DNA from: Anolis carolinensis
Lineage: Eukaryota
Length of the DNA stretch: 64,000 nucleotides
Direction of reading: 5' to 3'
Assembly (NCBI RefSeq): GCF_035594765.1
Contig: NC_085846.1
Coordinates: forward strand, 31,483,190-31,547,189
Below are positions 6,854 through 64,000 of the stretch, in pieces. The stretch's first letter is position 1; each line of letters begins with the position of its first letter. The notes below the pieces were generated by a model. It was not told the origin of the DNA. It was given only the letters and a program-made list of their open reading frames with translations, and ran no database searches. Position numbers and translations under genes: made by a program.

Positions 6854-8702
6854 AATCGGATATCAGATTTTTTCTTTTCTTTTGGGGACTTTTATGTGGA
6901 AAAAATACAATTTTTTGTGCAATTTTTTTTGCACAACACAGTATTTTTAGTGTGTGCTATTTTTGCCCAAAAAGTAAAGGTGAAAAAAAATCAAAATGTA
7001 CAAAAATGATCATAATCCCATTCAGCAGGGGGAAAAACTATTTTAAAACTATTCTTTGTATGGTAAAATGCCATAGGCAAACTCTAGCACTGGATATACT
7101 CAACTCTGTGTGGGAGAGACGTCATTTTCATTACGTTTGTTAGAACCACAAAGAAAGACTGATAAAATATATAATTATGCCCAGAGAGAGAACTAAATTA
7201 ATATCAACACTAATTAGCTTCGTCCCAAACAGAGTAAGTAAATATATAAGAAGCACATCTGAAAGTAACACCTTGTGGAAGAGTCACACCCTTCCCACAC
7301 AATATGAGGAAAATGTTGACTGGTAAAATTATTTTCATGTGTAAAGAAAGGTGGTTATTAGGAGAACAGAACCTGTAATGTAGGGAAACAGCTATGATTA
7401 AATCTAAGGCTGAAAATAAAATGGGAAATATAGTTTCCTTTCAAAATCCTGTGTATGTGTGTGTCTGTAGTTATGTGTAATAGAGAAAAAGAGAGACAGA
7501 TGGTTCTGTCTTTTGAAAGCGACTAGGATGAAATGTAGAAAAGACCCAAGAGGCTACCATCCCCTCAAATTTTCAGTATATATTTTGGTGTGAATGTTTT
7601 TCATTGAAGTCAGTATTATGTAGTGCTTTGAATATTAGACCACAACTACAAAGACCAGAGTTTGGTTCCCATAATGATACTGACTTGAAAGCACATAGCA
7701 GCAACAATTTTCATTGGAATTTTAGCAGTTTATTCAATCATTCACTTAATTCACTTGATGTTTGTTTTTGGCTACAATGTTTTGATAGTTGGTTTCAGTA
7801 TTCAGTCCTGTTATTCCACCAAGTTTCCATTTCTTCTTTCTGAGGCCAGCAAAGAGAGCGATCTCAGTCAAAAAGGAGTCATGTGATGAAGATAACACCA
7901 TAACAATATGATAGAACTAATAAAATTTAATTACAAGATGATGTCTTGAAGCCCAAATCAGGAAATGAAAGAGTGGGACAATGCCTCAAGGAAAAGTAAC
8001 ATGGGTGATCCCACCGCATGAAAGGATCTTAAAATGAACAGTGTGGCATTACCATATTGCATAGTTAAGACAGATACCTTATTCCCCATCTAGACTGACT
8101 ATTTAATGAAGTTCAAAGCTAGTGTCAAACTGTGGTGGCCAGACAATAAACACTCACAAAAGTGGATGAAAGAAATCCCTTAATGCACAACAGTGCTCTT
8201 TGGTTTGTGTAATCACCACAATCAAACTGGTTTCAGGATTTCCTATCTAATCATCAGTACAGAGAAACTTTCACCTATACCAGTTTGAAAATGTTTTAAA
8301 TGGTCACGGTAGATGTGACCTTGATGACTTGATATCACCGATCAAAGACATTTCAAGGAACAGCAAGTTCAGTAAATATTTATTCAGGAGTCCAAAACAT
8401 TTAAGAAATGGGATAAAAATTGTCACACAATATTTTTGCACCCCACCCGCATAAAATTGTTGAACTGGGACTCTGCTGAGCAGAGTTTTCTTAGATTTTC
8501 CACAAGATTTCATTTAAGCTGCCAGTCAAAAATCGGTTAGCTCAGGGGAGCTTTGCATCCTTCTGTAGGCAAAAGGGAGACAATTATTCTGTGCGGTTCC
8601 AGTGTTGCCAACACACTCACACAAACCACACAATTCTCTTTGTATTTTTCCCAAGGAGCTGCTGACACGTGCAGCATCTTCTCTGAATCCCATGATATCT
8701 GC

Positions 8703-8840
8703 AGGCAGCTTGCCTTTGGGAAATTCTCCTTGGAACGAATAATTACAGCATCCAATGCTATGAATGTAGAAGGGGAGGAGAAAAACCCAAAGGAAGGAGC
8801 ACAACCAGTATTGGTGACACCCTACGGAGAAAGTATAAAT
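8703..8840 (+). promoter_or_regulatory. Keratin A proximal promoter: AGGCA-N3-TGCCT palindrome, GGTGACACCC box, TATAAAT
   Basis: TATAAAT at 8834-8840, ~100 nt upstream of the ATG; the same motifs recur at matching positions in the paralogous promoters. Confidence 0.75.
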
Positions 8841-8938
8841 CCAGATTGGTGCGAAGTGGAGCCCAGCAGTCTTAACTTCAACTCCAAGGGTGCTTCTTTC
8901 TTTCTGCTTAACCTTAGAGAGCCTCCATCCCTTTCGCT

Positions 8939-11900
8939 ATGAGCAGTGGTACAAGGCACACTGTTGCAACACCTGCGAGAAGCAGCAGTGGGAGCAGCAC
9001 CCTAGGTGGAGGACGGGCAGGGGTCGGCTCCGTCTCCTCTGGACGGTACGCTGCCAGTGGGATCAGCAATGGGAGAAGTAACTTCTCTGTCCGGAGTAAT
9101 ACAGGAGCAGTTTCCCCCTGTACCCATGGGCCAGGAAGAGGCCATTTCTCAAGTGGCAGCTGCAGTGGAATGTTTGTCGCTGGTGGGCATGTAGCAGCAA
9201 GTGGCTATGGGGATGGCTCTCATGTTACGAATCCTGCTGCAAGAAATACTGTAGTTGGTGGTGCTGGTGCTGGTCATCCAACTGTGGTCGGAGGTACTGG
9301 CCATGCTATTCCTGGTGACATGGCAGCGGGTGCACATGTGGGCATGCCTACTGGTGTAGTTGGTGGTATGGTAATGGGTGCTCATGGGGGCATGCCTGCT
9401 GGTGTAGTTGGTAGCATGGGTAGTGTAGCTGGAAGTCCTCATCCCAGTATGGTAGCTGGCAGTCCTCATCCCAGTATGGTAGGTGGCAATCCTCATCCTG
9501 GTATGGTAGCTGGCAATCCTCATCCCGGTATGGTAGCTGGCCATTGTGGTATGGTTGGGGGTTTACCTGCTGGTATGGTAGCTGGCATGGGGGGTATGAT
9601 GGGAGGTGGTCATGGAGGCATGATGAGTGGGGTAACCAGTGTGATGACTGGACCGATTTTGGTTAGTGCAGTGGGTGGTGAGCCCATTGCTTGTGCAAGT
9701 GTGTTCTCCAGCTTTGATGGAAAAATGACAATGCAGAACCTCAATGACCGACTGGCCAGCTACCTGGACAAGGTCCGATGCCTGGAGGAGGAAAATGCTG
9801 ATCTTGAATCTCGAATCAGGGAATTTTATGCTAAGCAAGGACCCCTCTCTGAACCCAAGGATTACTCTCATTACCATCAACAAATTGAAGATCTTAAAAA
9901 CCAGGTAAAATGTCAGTGCTTAATTTCTTTTTCATTACTTTCATGCAGTTGTGATAGGTGACTTCCATATCAGTGGGATGGTGAATCCACTTTGGGTATT
10001 AATCCAAATTTGAAAGGAACTCTTGAAGCTGCTGACCCCACTTGGGGGGGGGGTGTAATTCTTTCAAAGTTCAGAGTTAAATCCAGAATAGGTTTATTGC
10101 TCTGCTCACATACCAGTGACTACCTCTATTTACTGGCTTTTGTCCAGTAAAAAGCAGGCTCTTGGACTTGGGTTTAAATCAGAACATCAATGCAAAAGAT
10201 GGACCTCAAAGGGTTTTAGATGTGTTCTTAACTTCCCATATTATTTTGCTCAATGTATGTTTCCGTTATTCCCAAACTTGATATTTTCATTCTTTGAAAG
10301 GAATAATTGAAAAATAAATTGAGATGTGTGAATCCTTCTGCCCTCCAGAATTTGCTGAACTGCAACACAGTATTTTTCACCACTGACTATGTTGGCCAGT
10401 GCTGCTGGGAGTTGTATTCCAATAATATCTAGAGGACTGCATGGTTCCCAGTAGAATCAGTTGGTGATTACTGTGACATTGGGTTAGTCAATCCAATCCA
10501 GGTTTCAAATGAGCTTTCCAAGGTGCTAAACCTTCTAAAAGTATGTTTGAGAGTTCCCTGAAAACTATTTAAAACCTGGGGTGCTTTCATTACCCCCCAC
10601 TGGCATGAAAATCACTAGCTCACATTGACCACCTCATCATATGGCTCAAATTAAGCGTCGTCGTCTGTGTTTGCTTGAATGGTATGGTGCAATTACACCA
10701 TGAGCTGCCATTCACCAATTTAGCCCCTGAAAAAAAGATGGCATATAAGGAAATTAAGTTGATGTCACACAATTGTGATTTTGTAGTCCCAAAGACAGTG
10801 GAATAAATATTGAGTGGTAACCCTACTTCCAAAATGATGTAATGCGCAAAATGGATGAACACAAGGCTATATTAGCTCTTAATGAAATAAAAAAATAGAT
10901 AGTGAAGTCTTTCAGTCAGCAAGCATGCTATTTTCTGGTTTAGCTATGTACTGATATATCAGAGTAAAGGACTTTTGCAGGATATTAGGTTAGTAAATGC
11001 CTGGCACTGAGGTGTACACTCTAAAACTCTTAGCTGATCTTCATGTGTAGGCAATGATGGCTAGTGGGTTCCATGTTTGTGTGTTGAGCAGTTTTTTATA
11101 GGCTATAATCCAAACTTTAAAGGTGCAATCCAAATTGCTGAATCTATTCAAGGTATTGATATTACCCCTAGGTTCAGTAACTTGAGAGTTTCTACTGAAC
11201 TCTGAAATGGATTAATCATACCACTAACATATGCACCACCAGCTGCCACTGTATATGAGAGAGATATATGGTCTTATAATTGGCCTCTCAACATTTTGCC
11301 TTTATGCAGCTCATTTGTACAAGTGTGGAGAACAACAAACTTCTTCTATGCATTGACAACAGCAAGCTGACTGCTGATGACTTCAGGACCAAGTGCGTAT
11401 TTTTCAGATAATATGGGAACAACTGGGGGTGGGGGTGGAAGGGACATTAATTCTATTGAGGCCCACTTTCTGGATGAAAGAGTGATCAGATTCCCAATAT
11501 CCCTAATCATTGGTCAAGACAGTTGGGGCTTCTGGGAATTATTTCAGATGCCCCAAACATCTGGAATAATATTATTATAGAATCACTGTTGTAAGGCATA
11601 CAAGTGGGACTATAATCCAACATGCCTGGCAGCAAAGCCAACATTGTAATTAGCTCAGAAGCCAACTTTTTTGCTGGGTACTTTTGCTGGGTACTAGTTG
11701 ACGTTGGGGAAATCACACTGTCAAACTTAGAAGAAGGCAATGACAAACCTCCCCTGAACAAATCTTCCTGAGAAAATAGTATGATAGAGTTTATTTCAGG
11801 TAACCATAAGTTGAAACAACTTGAAAGTATGCAACAAGAACCAATCTAGTAGCAGGACAGTGATATATGTCTCTCACAATGAATGGGGAAGCTGGTCTTC

Positions 11901-14900
11901 AAAGTCCATGAAAACTCATATGAAGTTCTAGTCTGAACATACAGTGATCAACTTTACCCTTCCTTCTTCACCCTTCCTGAGGAGGAATCAAAATCAAATT
12001 CTCATGCTCTTTTCTTTTTGGTCCAGGTTTGAGACAGAATGTTGCCTCCGTCAGAACGTGGAGGCTGACATCAATGGCCTGCACCAAATCCTGGATCAGT
12101 TGACAGCCTGCAGGGCTGATCTGGATGTACAGTGTGATAACTTACAGGATGAGCTAAACTGCCTGAAGAAGAACCATGCAGAGGTGAGGGATCAGCATTT
12201 TCCTGTTTCAGAATGTCTAAGTGACATGTCTAAAAGAATACTCTTCTTATTACAAGAACTTTAGGTCTGGGAATAGTATTCTTACATGCCAAAGGTGCAT
12301 GTCAAAATATATTGATATTAGGGCCAACTCAAGACATTCTGTGGATTGAGATGAAGAACAAAATGGTGGCTTCCAACACAAAATATCCAATTGAATAGGC
12401 AGTGGTATAATTCTTCCTCACTGGTGATGGGTCAAAATTCTCCATTATAACTGATGGTAGCAGCCCAATTTTAGCAGTCCCTAACAGATTAGTGCTGCCT
12501 ACCAGTATCTGCCACCAGAAGTTAATGTCCTACTCTATCTAATGGTGGAGCTGGTTCTAACTAAGAACTATTTTTTCCAAATGTTATATATTTCTGATCC
12601 AAGAATTCAAGTTTGATTGGGGAAAAATATCCATTGACATGGAAGACATTCAAAATCCCCAGAGAGAAACATATATAGGTGCATGGTTAAGATAATTGTG
12701 TTTATTGAGTGATGTTTACATAAAAGAGTGAGGAAAACAACATGTAGGATCTATCCAAACTGAACAACTGTAGCACCTTAATACCACTTTACTTCTCATG
12801 ACTCTCTTCTATGGAATTTGAAGTTTGATGAACTACTTAGAATTGAACCCAAAAAACAAACAAATTGCATTGGAATTTACCAGAGTCTTGCTAGAGGACC
12901 CAGAAAACTTGGTCCATCCATAGCATAATAGGGTATATTAAAATAAGTATTTTCACCAAGGCCTGTATGGCAAAAGTATCAAATTAAGTTTCATCCTGTT
13001 AATTATGACAGAATTAAAATGTTTTAACCTCTGAAAAACATTCACTGTGGTGGATGAGAAGGACAGAAAGTTTTGTTGGATCATTCAGACTTGTTTTGGT
13101 TATGGTGAGATGGTACTCATGTCATACAATCATTTAATTAACATGGAAAACTATATTAACTAAATCCACATTATTCACAACTGTAATATTCAGAGAATGT
13201 GTTCAGATATAAATTCAAACTACAGTTTATTATGATATCTAAATGCAGCCAAAGAGTATTTAGAGTTTGAAGCAGGCTAGAATAAGAACATCTGAGCATT
13301 TGCTAAAGAAGGTTGTACAACGTACAAAGAATTTTAAAAAATTCTTCTTTGTGTTCCTAGGGAGCAAATATATTTTGAAATGGTCTTATCTACACTGACC
13401 ATTCAATGCAGTTCGAAGCTAGCTTCCAACTGTGGTGGCCAGACAACAAATTCCCACAATAGCACACAAAAGAAAGTCTTTAATGTGCATCAGTGCTCTG
13501 TGGTTTGTGTAATCACCATCCAGCCTCAAACTGGTTCCAGGATTTTCTATGTAATCACCTGCATAGCAAAACTACTTTCTTCAATACCAGTTTGAAACTG
13601 CATTAAATAGTCAATGTAGATGGGACCAATGTAGATGTATTTTTTAGTTGATTTACCATTAAAGAGTCTCTTTCATATACAGCTATCCTAATTATTAGTA
13701 TTCATTTGAAGTACAGTAGAGTCTCGCTTATCCAACGTAACCGGGCCGGCAGAATGTTGGATAAGCGAATATGTTGGATAATAAGGAGGGATTAAGGAAA
13801 AGCCTATTAAACATCAAATTAGGTTATGATTTTACAAATTAAGCACCAAAACATCATGTTATACAACAAATTTGGCAGAAAAAGTAGTTCAGTATGCAGT
13901 AATGCTATGCAGTAATGACTGTATTTACGAATTTAGCACCAAAATATCATGATGTATTAAAAACAATCACTCAAAAAATTTGTTGGATAATCCAGAACGT
14001 TGGATAAGCGAGTGTTGGATAAGTGAGACTCTATTGTAGTATTGGAAAGTAGAAAGAAAATAAATGGAAGTGACAGTTGAGAATTGTTTAATTTGGTTTT
14101 GGCTTCTTTTTACAGGAGGTTGCCTGCCTGAAGAAGCAGTCCACTGGTGATGTCAATGTGGAAGTCAATACCTGTCCTGGACCCGATCTGAAGAAGATCC
14201 TGGAAGAGATGAGGTGCAAGTATGAGACAATGATAGAAGGCAACCGCAAGGAGGTTGAGGCCTGGTATGAATCTAAGGTAAGCTGTACATTTCTAAGTTT
14301 ACAATGCACAAAACAGAAGGAGAATACAATCACAACTGTGATGAGGGATCAATGACATGCAGGATATGTGAACTACAAAGGGTGATGGGATGACACCAAA
14401 ATGGTAATCTATAAAACTTTTGTACAGTTTCAGTTGAAATATATAATTTGTTCAGAAAAAAATTCCCTGTAGCTAGATATAACCACAAAAAACATTTTTC
14501 ACAAGTCCATCTTACATATACCTACGAGACTATATTAATTTACTTTTTGAACCTTCTAATACTCATGTATTCCAATCAGAGCTGTCATTCTTAGCCAACT
14601 ACAATGACACTTCCAGTCATGTAGTCTTGCTTGCAGGTGCTAATAGTTGCTAGTTTTGTCAAGCTTTCTGATATTTTAACTACAGTGTTGTGGTTAAAAT
14701 TGTAAGGGAGGAGGTTGTTGAAGTAACACCATGTACTACTGCATTTAGTGACACTAACACTAGTGATGCCATTGTGACAGACGCAGCTGAATTACAGCCT
14801 TTTCCCAATTCTTTCTACATTCCAGATTGAGGAGGTGAACCGTGATGTTTGCAACAGCAGCCAGGAGATTGAAGAAAGCAACAACAAGGTCACAGAACTG

Positions 14901-17888
14901 AGACGCCAACTGCAAGCCCTGCAGATTGACTATGAAGCCCAGTGCAGTCTGGTAAGAGACAGCTTCTGCATCCCTGGAAGCATGAAAGCGGGGTGGGCAG
15001 ACGAATGAATGGAGGCAGGTAATGTGCCTTCATTTATTTATTTATTTATTTATTTACAGCATTTATATTCCACCCTTCTCACCCCGAAGGGGACTCAGGG
15101 CGGATCACATTACACACATAGGCAAACATTCAATGCCTTTTAACATAGAACAAAGACAAGACAAACATAGGCTCCGAGCGGGCCTCGAACTCATGACCTC
15201 CTGGTCAGAGTGATTCATTGCAGCTGGTTGCAGCTGGCTTGTTCTCCCGCCTGCGCCATACATCTGATGTATGTGCACTAACCACAGAAACAACACATTT
15301 TGTGGAAGCACTCCTGGGGCCAAAGGATTTGTTCCTATGCCTTGTCCACATGATTAGGAAAAAAATAAGAATTTAATGGGTAGGGCACGGGGTGCCAGGA
15401 TTGCCCCACTGTCCTGCCACTTCGCTACAGAGGTTGGTGAATCAGCATGGGGGACTTCATCAATGTGATGAGGTCCATCATCTAGAAATCAAAAGTATAA
15501 ACTGGAAGGAAGGAGAGGAGGAAGGAAGGAAGAAAGGAAGGAAGGAAAAAAGGAAGGAAGGTGAGAGTTCTGCACTTTACCATGCTAACAACGAGAAACA
15601 GGACATTTGTTAACAAAGAAAAATGATGTTTCTCCTCTATTTCTCAGAGGGACACCCTTGAAGCCTCCCTAGGTGAAACTGAGCTTCGCTACAATGGCCA
15701 TCTGGGAGATCTGCAGGAGCGTATCTCCTGCCTAGAGCAGCAGCTGGCTGAGCTGCGTTCAGAGATGGAGTGCCAGAACCATGAGTATACCGAGCTCCTA
15801 GATGTCAAAAGCCGACTGGAGCAGGAGATTGGCACATACCGTGGCTTGCTGGAAGGGGGACAGAACGACAGCAAGTAAGTGGCAGAGAGAAAGAGGTAGT
15901 GAAACACTCCCTCCCCCATAAAATGAATTACCATTACGGATTGGACACACTTCAGTTTAGTTTTGATATAATTTTTCAAAAGTTACATGTTTCTTACAAT
16001 GTAGTATCTTATAACAACAAAGCAGGTAAATTGCAATTACAGGAGAACATTGGCTGGGACTTATCACATGGCATAAGAATTCCTCTTGTTACTCTAGTGG
16101 GAGACTGTTTGGGACCCATTACTTCTATAAACAACTAGCTTAAGTATCCTGCAATTCCCTGGTTAGAAATTTTGTAATTTGTAACACTATGTATTTGAAA
16201 AAGTCATTGTTTTTGGATTTTATGAATGGTCCCATTAAGAAATTGTATAAAGGTGTGGGGGGACTACAGCTCACATCAAGTTAGGTTAACCCTCCTCAAA
16301 CCCCACTAGTACTTAAAGCTGGTCATGTTGGGTATGTATGCTCTCTGGATGTGGGATGACTACAATGTCTATCATGCTGGGTGAGTCCCTCCAAACCTCT
16401 TCAGTATATTATGTTGGTCACAGAAGTTCTGTGTACCAAATCCATTATTGGTGGCATTCAGAGGGCTTTCTAGATGCAGGGTGAACTACAAGTCTCATCC
16501 CCCAAACCCTACCAGTATTCAGAGTTGGGCATGTTGGGTATGCGTGCCAATCCAGATCAATTGTCAGATGGGTCAGAATGCTCTCTGGATGTGGGTGAAC
16601 TGTATCTCCCAAACTCCAGGGTCAATCCCTCCCAAATGCTGCCAGTATTTTCTTTTGATCATGGGGGGGCTGTGTATCAGATTTGGTCCAGATTCGTCAT
16701 CGGTGGGGGTCACAGGGCTTCCTGGAAGTGGGAGCCAATAGGAAATTGTCCAAAAACATAAATCGTCACACACATACATACATACATGCATACACTTTTA
16801 TTATATACATACAAGTTGAGACCATCAGCAGAATACATTCAATAGAGATAATAACTTCCTTTCGGAAAAGAAACACTTTTCAACCATCTCCCACAGGGAG
16901 AACGACAGAAGAGGAATTGTGTCATATAATGAATCCTGCTCTTATCCTGTTGTAATACCAATTTACTTGCCTCTTGTGAGGTCCTTAGAATAGAAAAACA
17001 TCATCTGAATGCATGAGAGGCTGCAATTGATGGATAAATTTCTTGTGGCCCAGGGCAAATGATTTAAAAGTTCAAGTTTGAATCCCTGTGTATTTAACCA
17101 CGGTAGCATTGATTTAGAGCTGCTACCTCTTTTGTACAGCAGGCTTCCCATTTTTAAACACCTTAACTGCAGCTAAAATGAAGCACTTTCAACATTGGGA
17201 ACAGCTTCGCCCGTTAAATTTAGCCAGTGCTGAACAACTAATTTATCGATTTGGGTTTGTTTTTGTTTTTTTAACAAATATTTTCAAGCCTAATTTGGTT
17301 GAATCTTTAGATGCAGAACCCATCGATATGGAAAGCTGACTGTAATCAAATATTTTAGTGCTGAATTAGAGTGCCACGTTTTTTGTTGTTGTTGTGCTTC
17401 TTTAGGTAATAAAGCAGGCAGGGAGACTATAGAAACTTTGATTTAAGAATACGCAATGCATGTATAATGCATTTGACCAGTAGAAATGGAATTTTTTTTG
17501 TTTGAAATGATTTTTGAAAATAATTTATATAAGTAGTATATGTCTTCACATTTTGGAAAGAAGACACATGACTCTAAAAAGCAGATAGATTTCTCTTCCT
17601 ATTGTTTTTTCAGAGCATTTTCTTTTAGCAAATATCAAAGTGTTCCCCAGAATCTCCCCCAGAGAACAATGAAAGCAGCTGACACTGATATGCTGAATTG
17701 GGGATCTGTGTGGGTGAAATGACTTCTGATCAAAACTTTTTTTTTTCAGTAGCCACAATGGAGGAGGCGGGAACACCAGCAGAGTTAGTAGTGCATCAAA
17801 TGGACGCTCCAGTGAAAGTCGGTCAACCCACACTTACGGGACCCATTCTGCAGTTCATACACACCATGGAGGTCATTTACACCACTAG
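8939..17888 (+). CDS. Type I keratin gene A, cysteine-rich rod (HAS/KRT9-like family), ~619 aa; join(8939..9904,11310..11392,12027..12183,14116..14277,14826..14951,15648..15874,17750..17888)
   Basis: Helix-initiation motif [22 protein letters not shown] and termination motif [16 protein letters not shown]. Internal exons are 83/157/162/126/227 nt with GT-AG junctions and a continuous frame. Exon 7 follows a T-tract+CAG and resembles exon 7 of gene C. Exons 1-6 are firmer than exon 7. Confidence 0.93.
9425..9541 (+). repeat. Coding 27-nt tandem repeat (4+ units) encoding VAG(S/N)PHP(S/G)M in the keratin A head
   Basis: The unit gtagctggcagtcctcatcccagtatg is repeated with few substitutions. 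Confidence 0.9.
13714..14036 (+). mobile_element. Tc1/mariner-type MITE
   Basis: TIR CAGTAGAGTCTC(G/A)CTTATCCAA with TA TSD; further copies at 42144 and 58182. Confidence 0.9.
15032..15260 (-). mobile_element. tRNA-derived SINE (same family as 5633)
   Basis: Reverse-complement copy with (TTTA)n tail in intron 5 of gene A. Confidence 0.85.
16135..16810 (-). mobile_element. Probable non-autonomous Helitron
   Basis: CTAG at one end and a (TACA)n/AT-rich other end; internal subrepeats gctctctggatgtggg..actaca. Confidence 0.5.
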
Positions 17889-19393
17889 GCCAACAAGGAA
17901 AACGTGCTTGAGGTGAGAAATAGATATGTCTATCTATGTTCTTGTTGACTTTTCCCCTATTTATGAGATCTTGTAGGATTTTGTGATAGTGTCCCATGTT
18001 GGGACAAAATTAAAAGTATGTGAAGGCACAACCAGGCAGTTAGCAATATCTTAGATACCGAAGATGAAATTGTGAATTGATCGAAGTGAAAAATAGGTTA
18101 ACCACACATATAAAATCAACAAAGTACTGCACTTAGATTACAAGCATAAATGACTACGTTTGCAAGCATGCTATATAAAAGATATGACACTAAAGAAAAA
18201 TAAGCTGGGGAGGGAAAAGGAAGACAGACGTGGTTTCATGCATCAATACTTAAAGTGGCAACTCCTATTGATATTATTATAAATATAGTCATTCCTTCAC
18301 ATTTGCAATTTTAATGTTTGTAGATTTGTGTATTCATAGATTTGATTAAAATGTTATATCTATGAACCTAGGATTCATAGGTTCAACATGACTCTATGGT
18401 CAATTTTCCCCAGTCATGCTGGATGACTTACAGTGCATCTACACTGTAGAATTAATGCAGAAAATACCTTTAGCACAACCCAATGGTCAACATACAGCAG
18501 AAATTGACCATAGAGTCACGTTGAACCTAGATATTCTTAGAAAGATATTCTTTCAGGTCCTGCACCTCTGATCCTTGCAAAAGTAGAGGACCTACATATT
18601 CTCTCAGCCAAGCAGTTAGAGAAAGGCATTACTATTCTACAAAACCATGTTTTTGACCTATAGAAACCCTATACTGGATACTTTGGAATTGCTATAAAGG
18701 AGACAAATATCCAGGCAACATGAGACCAATATAAGTCCTTCCAAAAGTCTTATATAATGTCCATGCTGAACGCTGTTCAGGAGACGATGGGCTATAATGG
18801 TTGGAAGATTATGGAAAATTTAGATTGGCAAAGCATGGACTATTTAGACCTCATCCAGTCTGATAAGTGATCAGATTACAATATATATTAGTCCAGATCC
18901 TGGACCATTCTTTCAGAATGTAAAGCTCTGACAGGCATAAATAAGGACTTTGCTCCTCTCCATCCTTAACTTACTGTCTTCATACCACTAGGGCTCAAGA
19001 ATCAGCACCTGACCACAATGAGACAACATCCTCCTTTTGGGGGAAAGTGGGGCAATTGGGTATCTGGTGTAATGAGTTCAAGGCTGGATCTACACTGCCA
19101 TATAATCCAGCTGAATTCAGTTAATCTACATTCTGAAACTGGATTATATGGTAAAGTAGATCAAGCATAAATTAGGGGATCAGCCCAGATGTCAGAACTG
19201 AGTTCCACTATCCTCAATGACCATAAAAATCCATATGCAGGTTTAAGTTGAATTTATGTCTGCATTTCTCATTAACATGAGACTGACTATGGTTGTACAT
19301 GGATTTAAATATGTTCTGTCAATATGAATGATGCACCATTGACTTTTTCCTTGTCATAGTAACTACATTTTGATTCTTTCTGCTCATCTTTAG

Positions 19394-19670
19394 AGCTACA
19401 GAATAGCAAAGAAAACCATGTCCCTAGAGAAGCATACCTGATGGTACATCCATGCGGCTGTTGTTCCATCTGTCTAAATTACACCTTTCCAAGCTGACCA
19501 GAGATCCCACTTCACTATCTTCCACGCTGCTGTTTCTTTACTATTATTCTGCAACATAACCTCTGTCAAGCTTACTCAACCATCATGCTTTCGTGCCGTG
19601 GTTGGTTCTCTACTAGCCACTGAAAACAAAAGAAGGGATCAAAAATAAAGGCTCTGGTTTTTTCTGTGTG
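19394..19670 (+). other. Probable terminal (3' UTR) exon 8 of keratin A
   Basis: Donor GAG|GTGAGA at 17912/17913 and acceptor TTTAG ending 19393. The start of the exon resembles exon 8 of gene C. AATAAA at 19644-19649 is followed by a GT/T-rich tract; a second AATAAA lies at 19728. Confidence 0.6.
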
Positions 19671-19814
19671 CCACTCAAGGCCTGTGTGTTCAATATGTTT
19701 TCTCTAATCAAAACTTGAAAAGCATTGAATAAATAATGGTGACCACTAGGACACCATCCATACTACAGAATTTTAGCAGCATGATACCATTTTAACTGTC
19801 ATGGCTTCATCTTA

Positions 19815-20290
19815 CAAGCTGGAAAGCGTCCAGAAGAGGGCAACTAAAATGATCAAGGGTCTGGAGAACAAGCCCTATGAGGAGCGGCTTAAAGAACCGG
19901 GCATGTTTAGCCTGCAGAAGAGAAGGCTGAGAGGAGACATGATAGCCATGTACAAATATATGAGGGGAAGTCATAGGGAGGAGGGAGCAGGCTTGTTTTC
20001 TGCTGCCCTGGAGACTAGGACATGGAACAATGGCTTCAAACTACAGGAAAGGAGATTCCACCTGAACATCAGGAAGAACTTTCTCACTGTGAGAGCTGTT
20101 CAGCAGTGGAACTCTCTGCCCCAGAGTGTGGTGGAGGCTCCTTCTTTGGAGGCTTTTAAACAGAGGCTGGATGGCTTTGGGGGATATTGGGGGTGCTTTG
20201 AATGTGATTTCCTGCTTCTTCGCAGAGGGTTGGACTGGATGGCCCATGAGGTCTCTTCCAACTCTACTATTGTATGATTCTATGATTCTA
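19815..20290 (+). mobile_element. 5'-truncated CR1 LINE (RT C-terminus + 3' UTR)
   Basis: [20 protein letters not shown]...WNSLP is typical of CR1 ORF2; ATTCTATG tail. Confidence 0.92.
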
Positions 20291-46249: not shown

Positions 46250-46904
46250 AATGAGCCAACAATATGATGCAGCAGCTAAAAAAGCCAACGGGATTCTGGC
46301 CTGCATCAATAGGGGTATAGCGTCTAGATCCAGGGAAGTCATGCTCCCCCTCTATTCTGCCTTGGTCAGACCACACCTGGAATACTGCGTCCAATTTTGG
46401 GCACCGCAGTTGAAGGGAGATGTTGACAAGCTGGAAAGTGTCCAGAGGAGGGCAACTAAAATGATTAAGGGTCTGGAGAACAAGCTCTATGAAGAGTGGT
46501 TTCAAGAGCTTGGCATGTTTAGCCTGCAGAAGAGAAGGCTGAGAGGAGACATGATAGCCATGTACAAATACGTGAAGGGAAGTCATAGGGAGGAGGGAGC
46601 AAGCTTGTTTTCTGCTGCCCTGCAGACTAGGACGCGGAACAATGGCTTCAAACTACAGGAAAGGAGATTCCACCTGAACATCAGGAAGAACTTCCTCACT
46701 GTGAGGGCTGTTCGACAGTGGAACTCTCTCCCCGGGGCTGTGGTGGAGGCTCCTTCCTTGGAGGCTTTTAAGCAGAGGCTGGATGGCCATCTGTCGGGGG
46801 TGCTTTGAATGCGATTTCCTGCTTCTTGGCAGGGGGTTGGACTGGATGGCCCATGAGGTCTCTTCCAACTCTACTATTCTATGATTCTATGATTCTATGA
46901 TTCT
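46250..46904 (+). mobile_element. 5'-truncated young CR1 LINE
   Basis: Uninterrupted 185-aa CR1 ORF2 C-terminus ([20 protein letters not shown]), 3' UTR and (ATTCTATG)n tail. Confidence 0.95.
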
Positions 46905-47826: not shown

Positions 47827-48087
47827 TTACCTGGATGGAGCTTTATGTTAGTAACAGCTTATATTAGAGGTTTATTTAAGTGAAGTGACAACTGTTCTTG
47901 TGCTGATAAAGCATAATGGAGCAAATGTGTCTGCTCCTTTATGGTTCTATAAAGCATTTACCTGGATGGAGCTTTATGTTAGTAACAGCTTATATTAGAG
48001 GTTTATTTAAGTGAAGTGACAACTGTACTTGTGCTGATAAAGCATAATGGAGCAAATGTGTCTGCTCCTTTATGGTTCTATAAAGCA
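47827..48087. repeat. 131-bp tandem duplication
   Basis: Two copies with one mismatch seen (actgttcttg/actgtacttg). Confidence 0.92.
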
Positions 48088-63398: not shown

Positions 63399-63538
63399 AT
63401 ACAGACCTGTGTAGATGCCATAATCAGTATTCTGTTATTCCTATCATGCTATCGGTGTGTCTTTGGCTTTTTCTTGCTGGTTGGTCTTGTTTCTGATGTT
63501 CTTTTACTCTGTGTTTGAGCTCTAAACATACCTATACA

Positions 63539-64000
63539 ATGATGTACATCAACGGAAGCCACAGCAATGGTGCCACCAGTTACAATGTCTTAGGAGCCAG
63601 TTCTGGAGCTTCTAGAAGATGTGTCTTTCCTGATGTGGGTGGTAGCAACTGTGGAGGTTCTCCAAGCTACTGTGGTGGAACAGCTTATGAAGGAAATCAG
63701 GACATGGAAAGAGGCATCTATGGTGGCTTGGATGGAGGTCCTTTAGGCAATGGTTATATATGTACTCCTTCTAGTGGGTTTGGCTTTAGCAACATCTGCT
63801 TTAAACATCTTGGTGGTGGGTATGGCATTTGGATTCAGGCACCTTTGTGCTCCTGTGATAAGAAAATGACCATGCAGAATCTCAATGACCGCTTAGCATC
63901 TTACCTGGACAATGTGCGTTATTTGGAGGAGGAAAATGCTCAGCTCGAGTGCAAAATTAGGGATTGGTACGATCAGCAAGGCTCACCCAATGACCCAAAG
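63539..64000 (+). CDS. Type I keratin gene D, exon 1 (partial, continues beyond window); closest to gene C
   Basis: Open frame [11 protein letters not shown]...[52 protein letters not shown] runs to the window end. Its 5' UTR and promoter are homologous to gene C. Confidence 0.9.

Follow-up and report, generated by a model that had tools for sequence, protein, structure and literature searches.

Elastomers are marked by a high content of glycine combined with proline (PMC5424786), and elastin-like peptides of the form XGGZG are described as self-assembling (PMC5814424). Avoidance of glycine directly before the P-Xn-G motif is reported for the coacervating proteins elastin, resilin, and gluten, but not for the fibrillar silks (PMC6799979). 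Abductin, which is Gly/Met-rich, is given the consensus GGFGGMGGGX (PMC13052691). In keratins and related epidermal proteins, glycine loops have been defined on large apolar anchors and not on aromatic residues alone (PMC8072682), with Ile and Val serving as loop anchors in lizard loricrins (PMC11431283). The heads of other intermediate-filament proteins are stated to self-associate and phase separate (PMC11121635). Among the papers found, HAS keratins are discussed solely for their cysteine content.

The head of the squamate keratin HAS4 differs from the epidermal heads in carrying a long core that is nearly free of aromatic and charged residues. On balance, this core would most likely act as a disordered hydrophobic matrix domain, a role judged from its sequence and that of its orthologs. 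The gene is known, but the head type is apparently undescribed: the main text of PMC7086170 contains no matches for 'head', 'histidine', 'methionine', or 'repeat' and does not discuss this head, and a literature search in which most subscription journals lay outside the coverage found nothing on the HAS4 head, its metal binding, or its phase behaviour.

The HAS4 gene, its transcripts, and its protein

The window, the whole 64,000-nt stretch of Anolis carolinensis DNA analysed, carries genes in the order HAS4-HAS3-HAS2-HAS1 on one strand, with only the start of HAS1 included and KRT14 lying outside. The gene considered here has been catalogued before, as the green-anole keratin HAS4. Its spliced 619-aa model equals XP_016850078.1 letter for letter and agrees, when compared by eye, with the printed Lizard_HAS4 (K9LC4, LOC100553851) in the supplement of PMC7086170; there is no sequence difference. 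The same gene is designated KRT9LC4 and corresponds to UniProt A0A803T7J2, and its snake ortholog bears the name 'Snake_HAS2'.

HAS4 is intact, with seven coding exons on the forward strand and canonical splice sites. A TATA box (TATAAA, 8834–8839, forward strand) lies about 105 nt 5′ of the ATG, and spliced contigs start at 8876–8880, although contigs cannot fix the start site. Coding exon 1 (8939–9904) encodes the head (aa 1–260), coil 1A, and the beginning of 1B, with the Pfam Filament domain starting at aa 261. Exons 2 (83 nt, 11310–11392) and 3 (157 nt, 12027–12183) have their splice joints in contigs from two sequencing runs, X14 and X18, the loose ends of which reach into exon 4 (162 nt, 14116–14277). 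Exon 5 (126 nt, 14826–14951) is flanked by canonical AG/GT, exon 6 (227 nt, 15648–15874) completes the rod, and for both the spliced model matches the public protein. Exon 7 (17750–17888) encodes the tail, the last 22 aa of which (17820–17885) include eight His and end in His-Leu-His-His-stop. The Filament domain, the 308-aa rod, and the 83/157/162/126-nt exons bounded by AG/GT identify a type I keratin. Cys residues number 15 in the rod and 19 in the whole protein, and those of the rod are presumed to form disulfide bonds. The total falls short of the more than 20 Cys with which PMC7086170 words the HAS group, although its authors still list the HAS4 sequence; full-length orthologs carry 20–27.

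In a quick maximum-likelihood tree of 46 rods (midpoint-rooted, with K10, K14, and K19 for comparison and without hair keratins; four unparsed rods, two mis-parsed rods, and four near-duplicate rows omitted), 16 squamate HAS4 rods form one clade (SH-aLRT 99). This clade is nested within a 40-row sauropsid clade (SH-aLRT 100), as sister to the HAS3-like keratins.

A splice donor lies 24 nt past the HAS4 stop (17889–17912), and a candidate acceptor is present at 19394, with a region extending to about 19680. The bases after 19394 resemble the final, short coding exon of HAS2 (from 59929). This suggests that a stop arose in exon 7 of HAS4, with the former last exon becoming 3′ UTR. The length of the X18 contig fits such a 3′ UTR (312 nt past the stop, ending near an AATAAA at 19644), the joint itself being inferred.

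Several neighbouring features were recorded. HAS3 (30206–37461) contains a 150-N gap at 33343–33492, and its relatives sit on long branches in the rod tree. HAS1 appears diverged from HAS2; within 63496–63545, its upstream ATG does not share the reading frame of the coding sequence and meets a stop after nine codons. The published Lizard_HAS1 begins MFTLCL in frame, and in the window ATGs in the coding frame follow at 63539, either an allelic or an assembly difference. Two near-perfect (98–99%) two-copy tandem duplications, at 28861–29257 (199 nt) and 47827–48087 (131 nt), could be assembly artefacts. A GC-rich region at 27011–27931, which contains an 18/27-nt repeat and has long ORFs on each strand, is possibly the end of a mobile element, and the ORFs at 19777–20277 and 46251–46808 presumably resemble the 3′-terminal part of a reverse transcriptase from a CR1-type LINE.

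Sequencing runs were compared over 8700–12300 in four of the 20 runs that carry the locus. None of the 20 is recorded as RNA; X14 and X18, guessed to be RNA, proved to be spliced. Their contigs span the whole repeat of the head and join exons 1–2 and 2–3 at GT..AG sites, and the repeat therefore belongs to a spliced transcript and not, as the preliminary description had allowed for, to sequence missing from mature mRNA. An assembly artefact or an intronic repeat was ruled out, since the spliced contigs and a single contig from a further run (X9) cross the repeat without indels. Copy-number polymorphism had also been raised as a possibility; no repeat indel or copy-number change appears in any of the four runs examined, in contigs that drop rare variants. 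Variants within the head were found at 9229 and 9652, both synonymous.

HAS keratins are characterised as components of cornified skin appendages. At the protein level, HAS4 is listed weakly by mass spectrometry of anole clawed toes (two peptides, one unique, 3% coverage; PMC11704414). A HAS4 row was not found in the back-skin table among the supplement rows of that paper, nor in a search of the PMC11431283 supplement. In published mass-spectrometry rows for Pogona, the ortholog occurs in skin and not in claw (two peptides, one unique). This protein evidence is thin and the tissues are discordant between anole and Pogona, which counts against a matrix function. A Lys/Arg-free stretch of 160 aa (aa 103–262) encloses the whole core, and hence standard trypsin/LysC proteomics would miss the core.

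Composition and conservation of the head

The head comprises the 260 aa upstream of the rod start and contains 20 Met and 15 His, in line with the approximate counts given earlier (about 259, 20, and 15). Its N-terminal Ser/Gly/Arg part (aa 1–112; 8939–9274, forward strand) holds five of the seven head aromatics, can be aligned free of repeats across squamate HAS4, and is related to other HAS heads. It is followed by a low-complexity Gly/Val/Met/Ala/Pro/His core (aa 113–251; 9275–9691, forward strand), which lacks Phe, Tyr, and Trp and is predicted to be disordered. The segment that had been singled out as free of aromatics and almost uncharged is so: across 129 aa (9272–9658) there is no Phe, Tyr, or Trp and a single charged residue, an Asp, with Gly at 29.5%, Met at 14%, Val at 13%, Pro at 11%, and His at 8%. 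The entire head has five Phe, two Tyr, and 12 charged residues, with all seven aromatics outside that segment. The earlier picture of a non-aromatic head on a Cys-rich rod is thereby substantiated as a coding, spliced Gly/Val/Met/Pro/His head joined to a type I rod with 15 Cys.

Two tandem repeats, both on the forward strand, lie in the core. A 48-nt (16-aa) duplication at 9329–9424 has its copies at 9329–9376 and 9377–9424 (TRF period 48, 88% matches), exactly as claimed. Directly after it, a 27-nt array (9425–9541) encodes four full 9-aa units V(A/G)G(S/N)PHP(S/G)M (9425–9532) and a partial fifth (TRF period 27, 4.3 copies, 92%, score 185). The four units previously described as VAG(S/N)PHP(S/G)M are present, but the third reads VGGNPHPGM and does not begin with VAG. 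The best self-match at period 9 is 23/27, against a maximum of 14 in 2,000 shuffles, and that at period 16 is 11/16 against a maximum of 10 in 2,000; since both exceed every shuffle, the repeats are not due to chance. ORFs that cross the repeat on the opposite strand are presumed to arise from the periodicity of the sequence.

The head is extreme when set beside 166 non-HAS4 keratin heads, a set drawn from similarity searches and skewed toward keratins that resemble the query. Its longest aromatic-free stretch is 165 aa (median 32 and maximum 82 in the set), His reaches 5.8% (maximum 4.7%), Val 11.5% (maximum 10.0%), and Met 7.7% (95th percentile 4.8%, maximum 8.2%). AlphaFold assigns pLDDT below 50 and no secondary structure to aa 1–260. 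The head is consequently predicted to be disordered, although low pLDDT is also expected when the alignment is shallow. A folded head domain was considered and set aside, as AlphaFold yields no confident structure.

Conservation was assessed on 17 full heads: the window protein, those of 15 named squamates, ranging from geckos to snakes, and one further protein (P0001). Partial heads (P0007, P0011, and P0013–P0016), snake models that are headless or fused, near-duplicates, and the Varanus model P0012 are omitted from these counts. The core is present in all 17, at 68–139 aa, with 29–46% Gly, 13–23% Val, 6–15% Met, 3–11% Pro, 3–7% His, no more than one aromatic, and one or two charged residues. 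Composition is thus kept across squamates while repeat number varies, the outcome of the ortholog comparison that the preliminary description had proposed. The Varanus model is the exception: its head is 111 aa long with the core almost missing, reflecting either real loss or a gene-model artefact.

The 16-aa duplication recurs in A. sagrei, which has two 9-aa units against the four of A. carolinensis, and the duplicate is not present as such in the 12 other aligned rows. Related single units (PHPGM, AHPGM, and AHAGM) occur in lacertids, Rhineura, and geckos. The four-fold PHP array, which the first description stressed, is the least conserved part of the head. Since the core is common to squamates and the array differs in size between anoles, the compositional domain appears to be old and the PHP array a recent product of slippage; for this array by itself, tolerated slippage is the likeliest reading. 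Just upstream of the rod in A. sagrei (P0121), a short duplication of separate origin (CANAACAN) has given the head two more Cys, another sign of slippage in exon 1. The suggestion that the head had been grafted onto the rod is unlikely because the repeat lies in exon 1 and is flanked by conserved HAS-type head parts, which looks like slippage in place. A domain graft from another gene was set aside: a phmmer search of a 166-aa core against 1.84 billion representatives returned 13 hits, the best four of which are unrelated periodic sequences, and no usable match to the core was found in the ESM Atlas.

All 12 proteins recovered by a head-only search (word-sharing candidates of 297–947 aa) are squamate HAS4, so that the head type appears squamate-restricted in these searches. 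HAS4 is retained in limbless snakes and in Rhineura. Eight snake models (P0244, P0245, P0247, P0248, P0250, P0251, P0252, and P0254; 349–355 aa) are apparently headless; as the published snake ortholog has a head where database models lack one, annotation may hide the repeat.

Elastin-like syntax without VPGxG

The core resembles elastin hydrophobic domains and LCST polymers in its uncharged Gly/Val/Pro/Ala sequence and, when the orthologs are pooled, in enrichment in xGGxG and avoidance of Gly before Pro motifs. Across the 17 cores, xGGxG (mostly VGGMG) occurs 46 times against 8.4 in shuffles and is absent from nine control heads; these and the following shuffle comparisons on cores are descriptive, with significance overstated because related species and duplicated units are counted as independent, and the repeat alignment is ambiguous. 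The A. carolinensis core itself contains no strict xGGxG motif. P-Xn-G is not enriched (84 against 94.6 in shuffles), and Gly immediately preceding this motif is scarcer than expected (12 against 35.4). A recurring VPAG(M/V)V core also resembles the LCST polymer motif VPAGVG. In contrast to elastin, VPGxG is absent from all 17 heads, Pro is lower, Met stands in for Val and Leu, Lys cross-link domains are lacking, and the domain is intracellular and joined to a filament rod; the two are non-homologous, and any likeness would be convergent. With abductin, HAS4 shares a Gly/Met-rich core with GGMGG motifs, but the abductin consensus as cited has Phe and little Pro, whereas Phe is missing from the HAS4 core, which contains Val, Pro, and His; homology is not expected.

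The resemblance to K1, K10, and K9 heads and to loricrin lies in a Gly-rich, variable head with apolar anchors and predicted flexibility. HAS4 anchors are Val and Met, and not the Phe and Tyr of K10 (head aromatics 2.5–5.6% against 13–14.5%), and the core contains Pro and His, unlike glycine-loop heads. Its Gly/Ser runs average 1.4–1.9 residues with a maximum of three, compared with means of 3.7–3.8 and maxima of 8–12 in three K10 heads; with no run above three in any of the 17 cores, the long glycine loops of the classical type are lacking, although apolar anchors are present. The contrast first drawn with Phe/Tyr-anchored loops holds in that HAS4 is non-aromatic, but loops can be defined on apolar anchors as well, Ile and Val among them. 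Likewise, an elastomeric or phase-separating head finds a parallel in the syntax of coacervating hydrophobic proteins, but its elastomeric half is weak given the lack of VPGxG and a Pro content of 3–11%.

Candidate roles: matrix, spacer, metal site, or rubber

The reading favoured, by a modest preponderance, is that the core forms a disordered sticker-and-spacer hydrophobic matrix that would pack between keratin filaments during cornification. The head repeat is an in-frame variable region, probably built by replication slippage from an ancestral unit close to VGG(A/V)(H/P)(A/G)G(M/V)VGGMG, with Val, Met, and Ile as interchangeable sticky residues and one to three Gly between them; in the anole lineage, this unit would have been extended by the 16-aa and 9-aa duplications. 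With uncharged aliphatic stickers taking the place of K10-type Phe/Tyr anchors, the heads of adjacent filaments would collapse hydrophobically onto one another while the cell dries, through LCST-type coacervation or labile beta contacts. Pro and Gly may keep this matrix pliable, with the 15 rod Cys locking filaments via disulfides. In the weakest step, evenly spaced His would tune solubility through pH or hydrogen bonds, and not as a metal cluster. The conservation of His exceeds the needs of a filler and argues against the matrix reading.

A simpler possibility, unlikely though not to be dismissed lightly, is tolerated slippage: the core would be a spacer of drifting length, with the anole 16-aa and 9-aa expansions having no function beyond maintaining frame and solubility. 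The 68–139-aa range of core length with lineage-specific units, the presence of four PHP units in A. carolinensis but only two in A. sagrei, the nearly coreless Varanus model, and the single base change that separates Met from Val and His from Pro in repeated codons are all what such drift would produce. It sits poorly, however, with cores that hold no more than one aromatic and one or two charged residues in 17 of 17 heads from geckos to snakes, with the short rod branches of the HAS4 clade relative to its HAS3-like sister, and with retention of the gene in limbless snakes and Rhineura; that both head SNPs are synonymous points the same way, although two sites prove little.

Met-X-Met and Met-X-X-Met are the copper motifs of Ctr1-type proteins, and His-rich proteins are known from jaws and beaks. 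HAS4 is likewise raised in Met and His, and it is rather improbable, though conceivable, that its His (and Met) bind Zn or Cu between chains and so harden the cornified layer. The head His content of 5.8%, above that of every comparison head, speaks for this, as do the invariant His columns: His is kept in 108 of 139 non-gap cells, with three columns at 15 of 15. However, the motif spacing is depleted. In the 17 cores MxM/MxxM spacing was observed 14 times, where shuffles give 31.5, and a single His pair lay within four residues, where they give 11.8, with none of 1,000 shuffles as low in either case. Acidic co-ligands are nearly missing from the core, and at one unit position His alternates with Pro (48 against 39 of 87 matches to a pattern that fixed the neighbouring positions). 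In the columns occupied by Met in the anole (initiator excluded), 15 non-anole orthologs show Met in 79, Val in 63, Ala in 14, and Ile in 10 of 172 non-gap cells; being so often replaced by Val or Ile, Met behaves like an aliphatic residue. The Met/His metal cluster proposed for the head is thus disfavoured, although His is better kept than Met, which leaves room for a role of His; spaced His might bridge separate chains, and the depletion makes metal binding less probable, not impossible. Clustered His is confined to the tail: all 15 complete tails (of 18 rows, three lacking the tail end) hold five to eight His in their last 22 aa, and HxHH forms the C-terminal end in 14 of the 15. More clustered and more constant, this His-x-His-His terminus is a better candidate than the head for a metal site or pH sensor, and if metal is bound at all, the main site is more likely to be here. 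Least probable is a true rubber-like elastomer, in which the core would lend reversible stretch to hinge or alpha-layer skin in the manner of elastin or abductin. VGGMG and GGMGG recall elastin VGGVG and the abductin consensus (PMC13052691), high Gly plus Pro is typical of elastomers (PMC5424786), and the gene is kept in snakes; yet VPGxG is lacking from the 17 heads, the core has 3–11% Pro, no Lys, and only zero to three Cys for network cross-links, and the short segment is attached to a rigid rod.

A bolder combination of these elements is put forward tentatively and is considered improbable: in one duplicated squamate scale keratin, the head would have converged on elastin/abductin-type coacervating sequence and the tail would have been shortened to a His-x-His-His metal or pH switch. 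On this view HAS4 would unite filament and matrix former in one molecule, condensing on its own under the control of pH or Zn, with a tie to the shed-able squamate epidermis. If the head is indeed an aliphatic, aromatic-free, self-associating domain, it would offer a case in nature on which the need of keratin heads for aromatic stickers could be tested, and it would represent a vertebrate case of intracellular convergence on elastin-like syntax. Squamate-restricted in these searches and kept in limbless lineages, the HAS4 head is a candidate contributor to those properties of the skin that set lizards and snakes apart.
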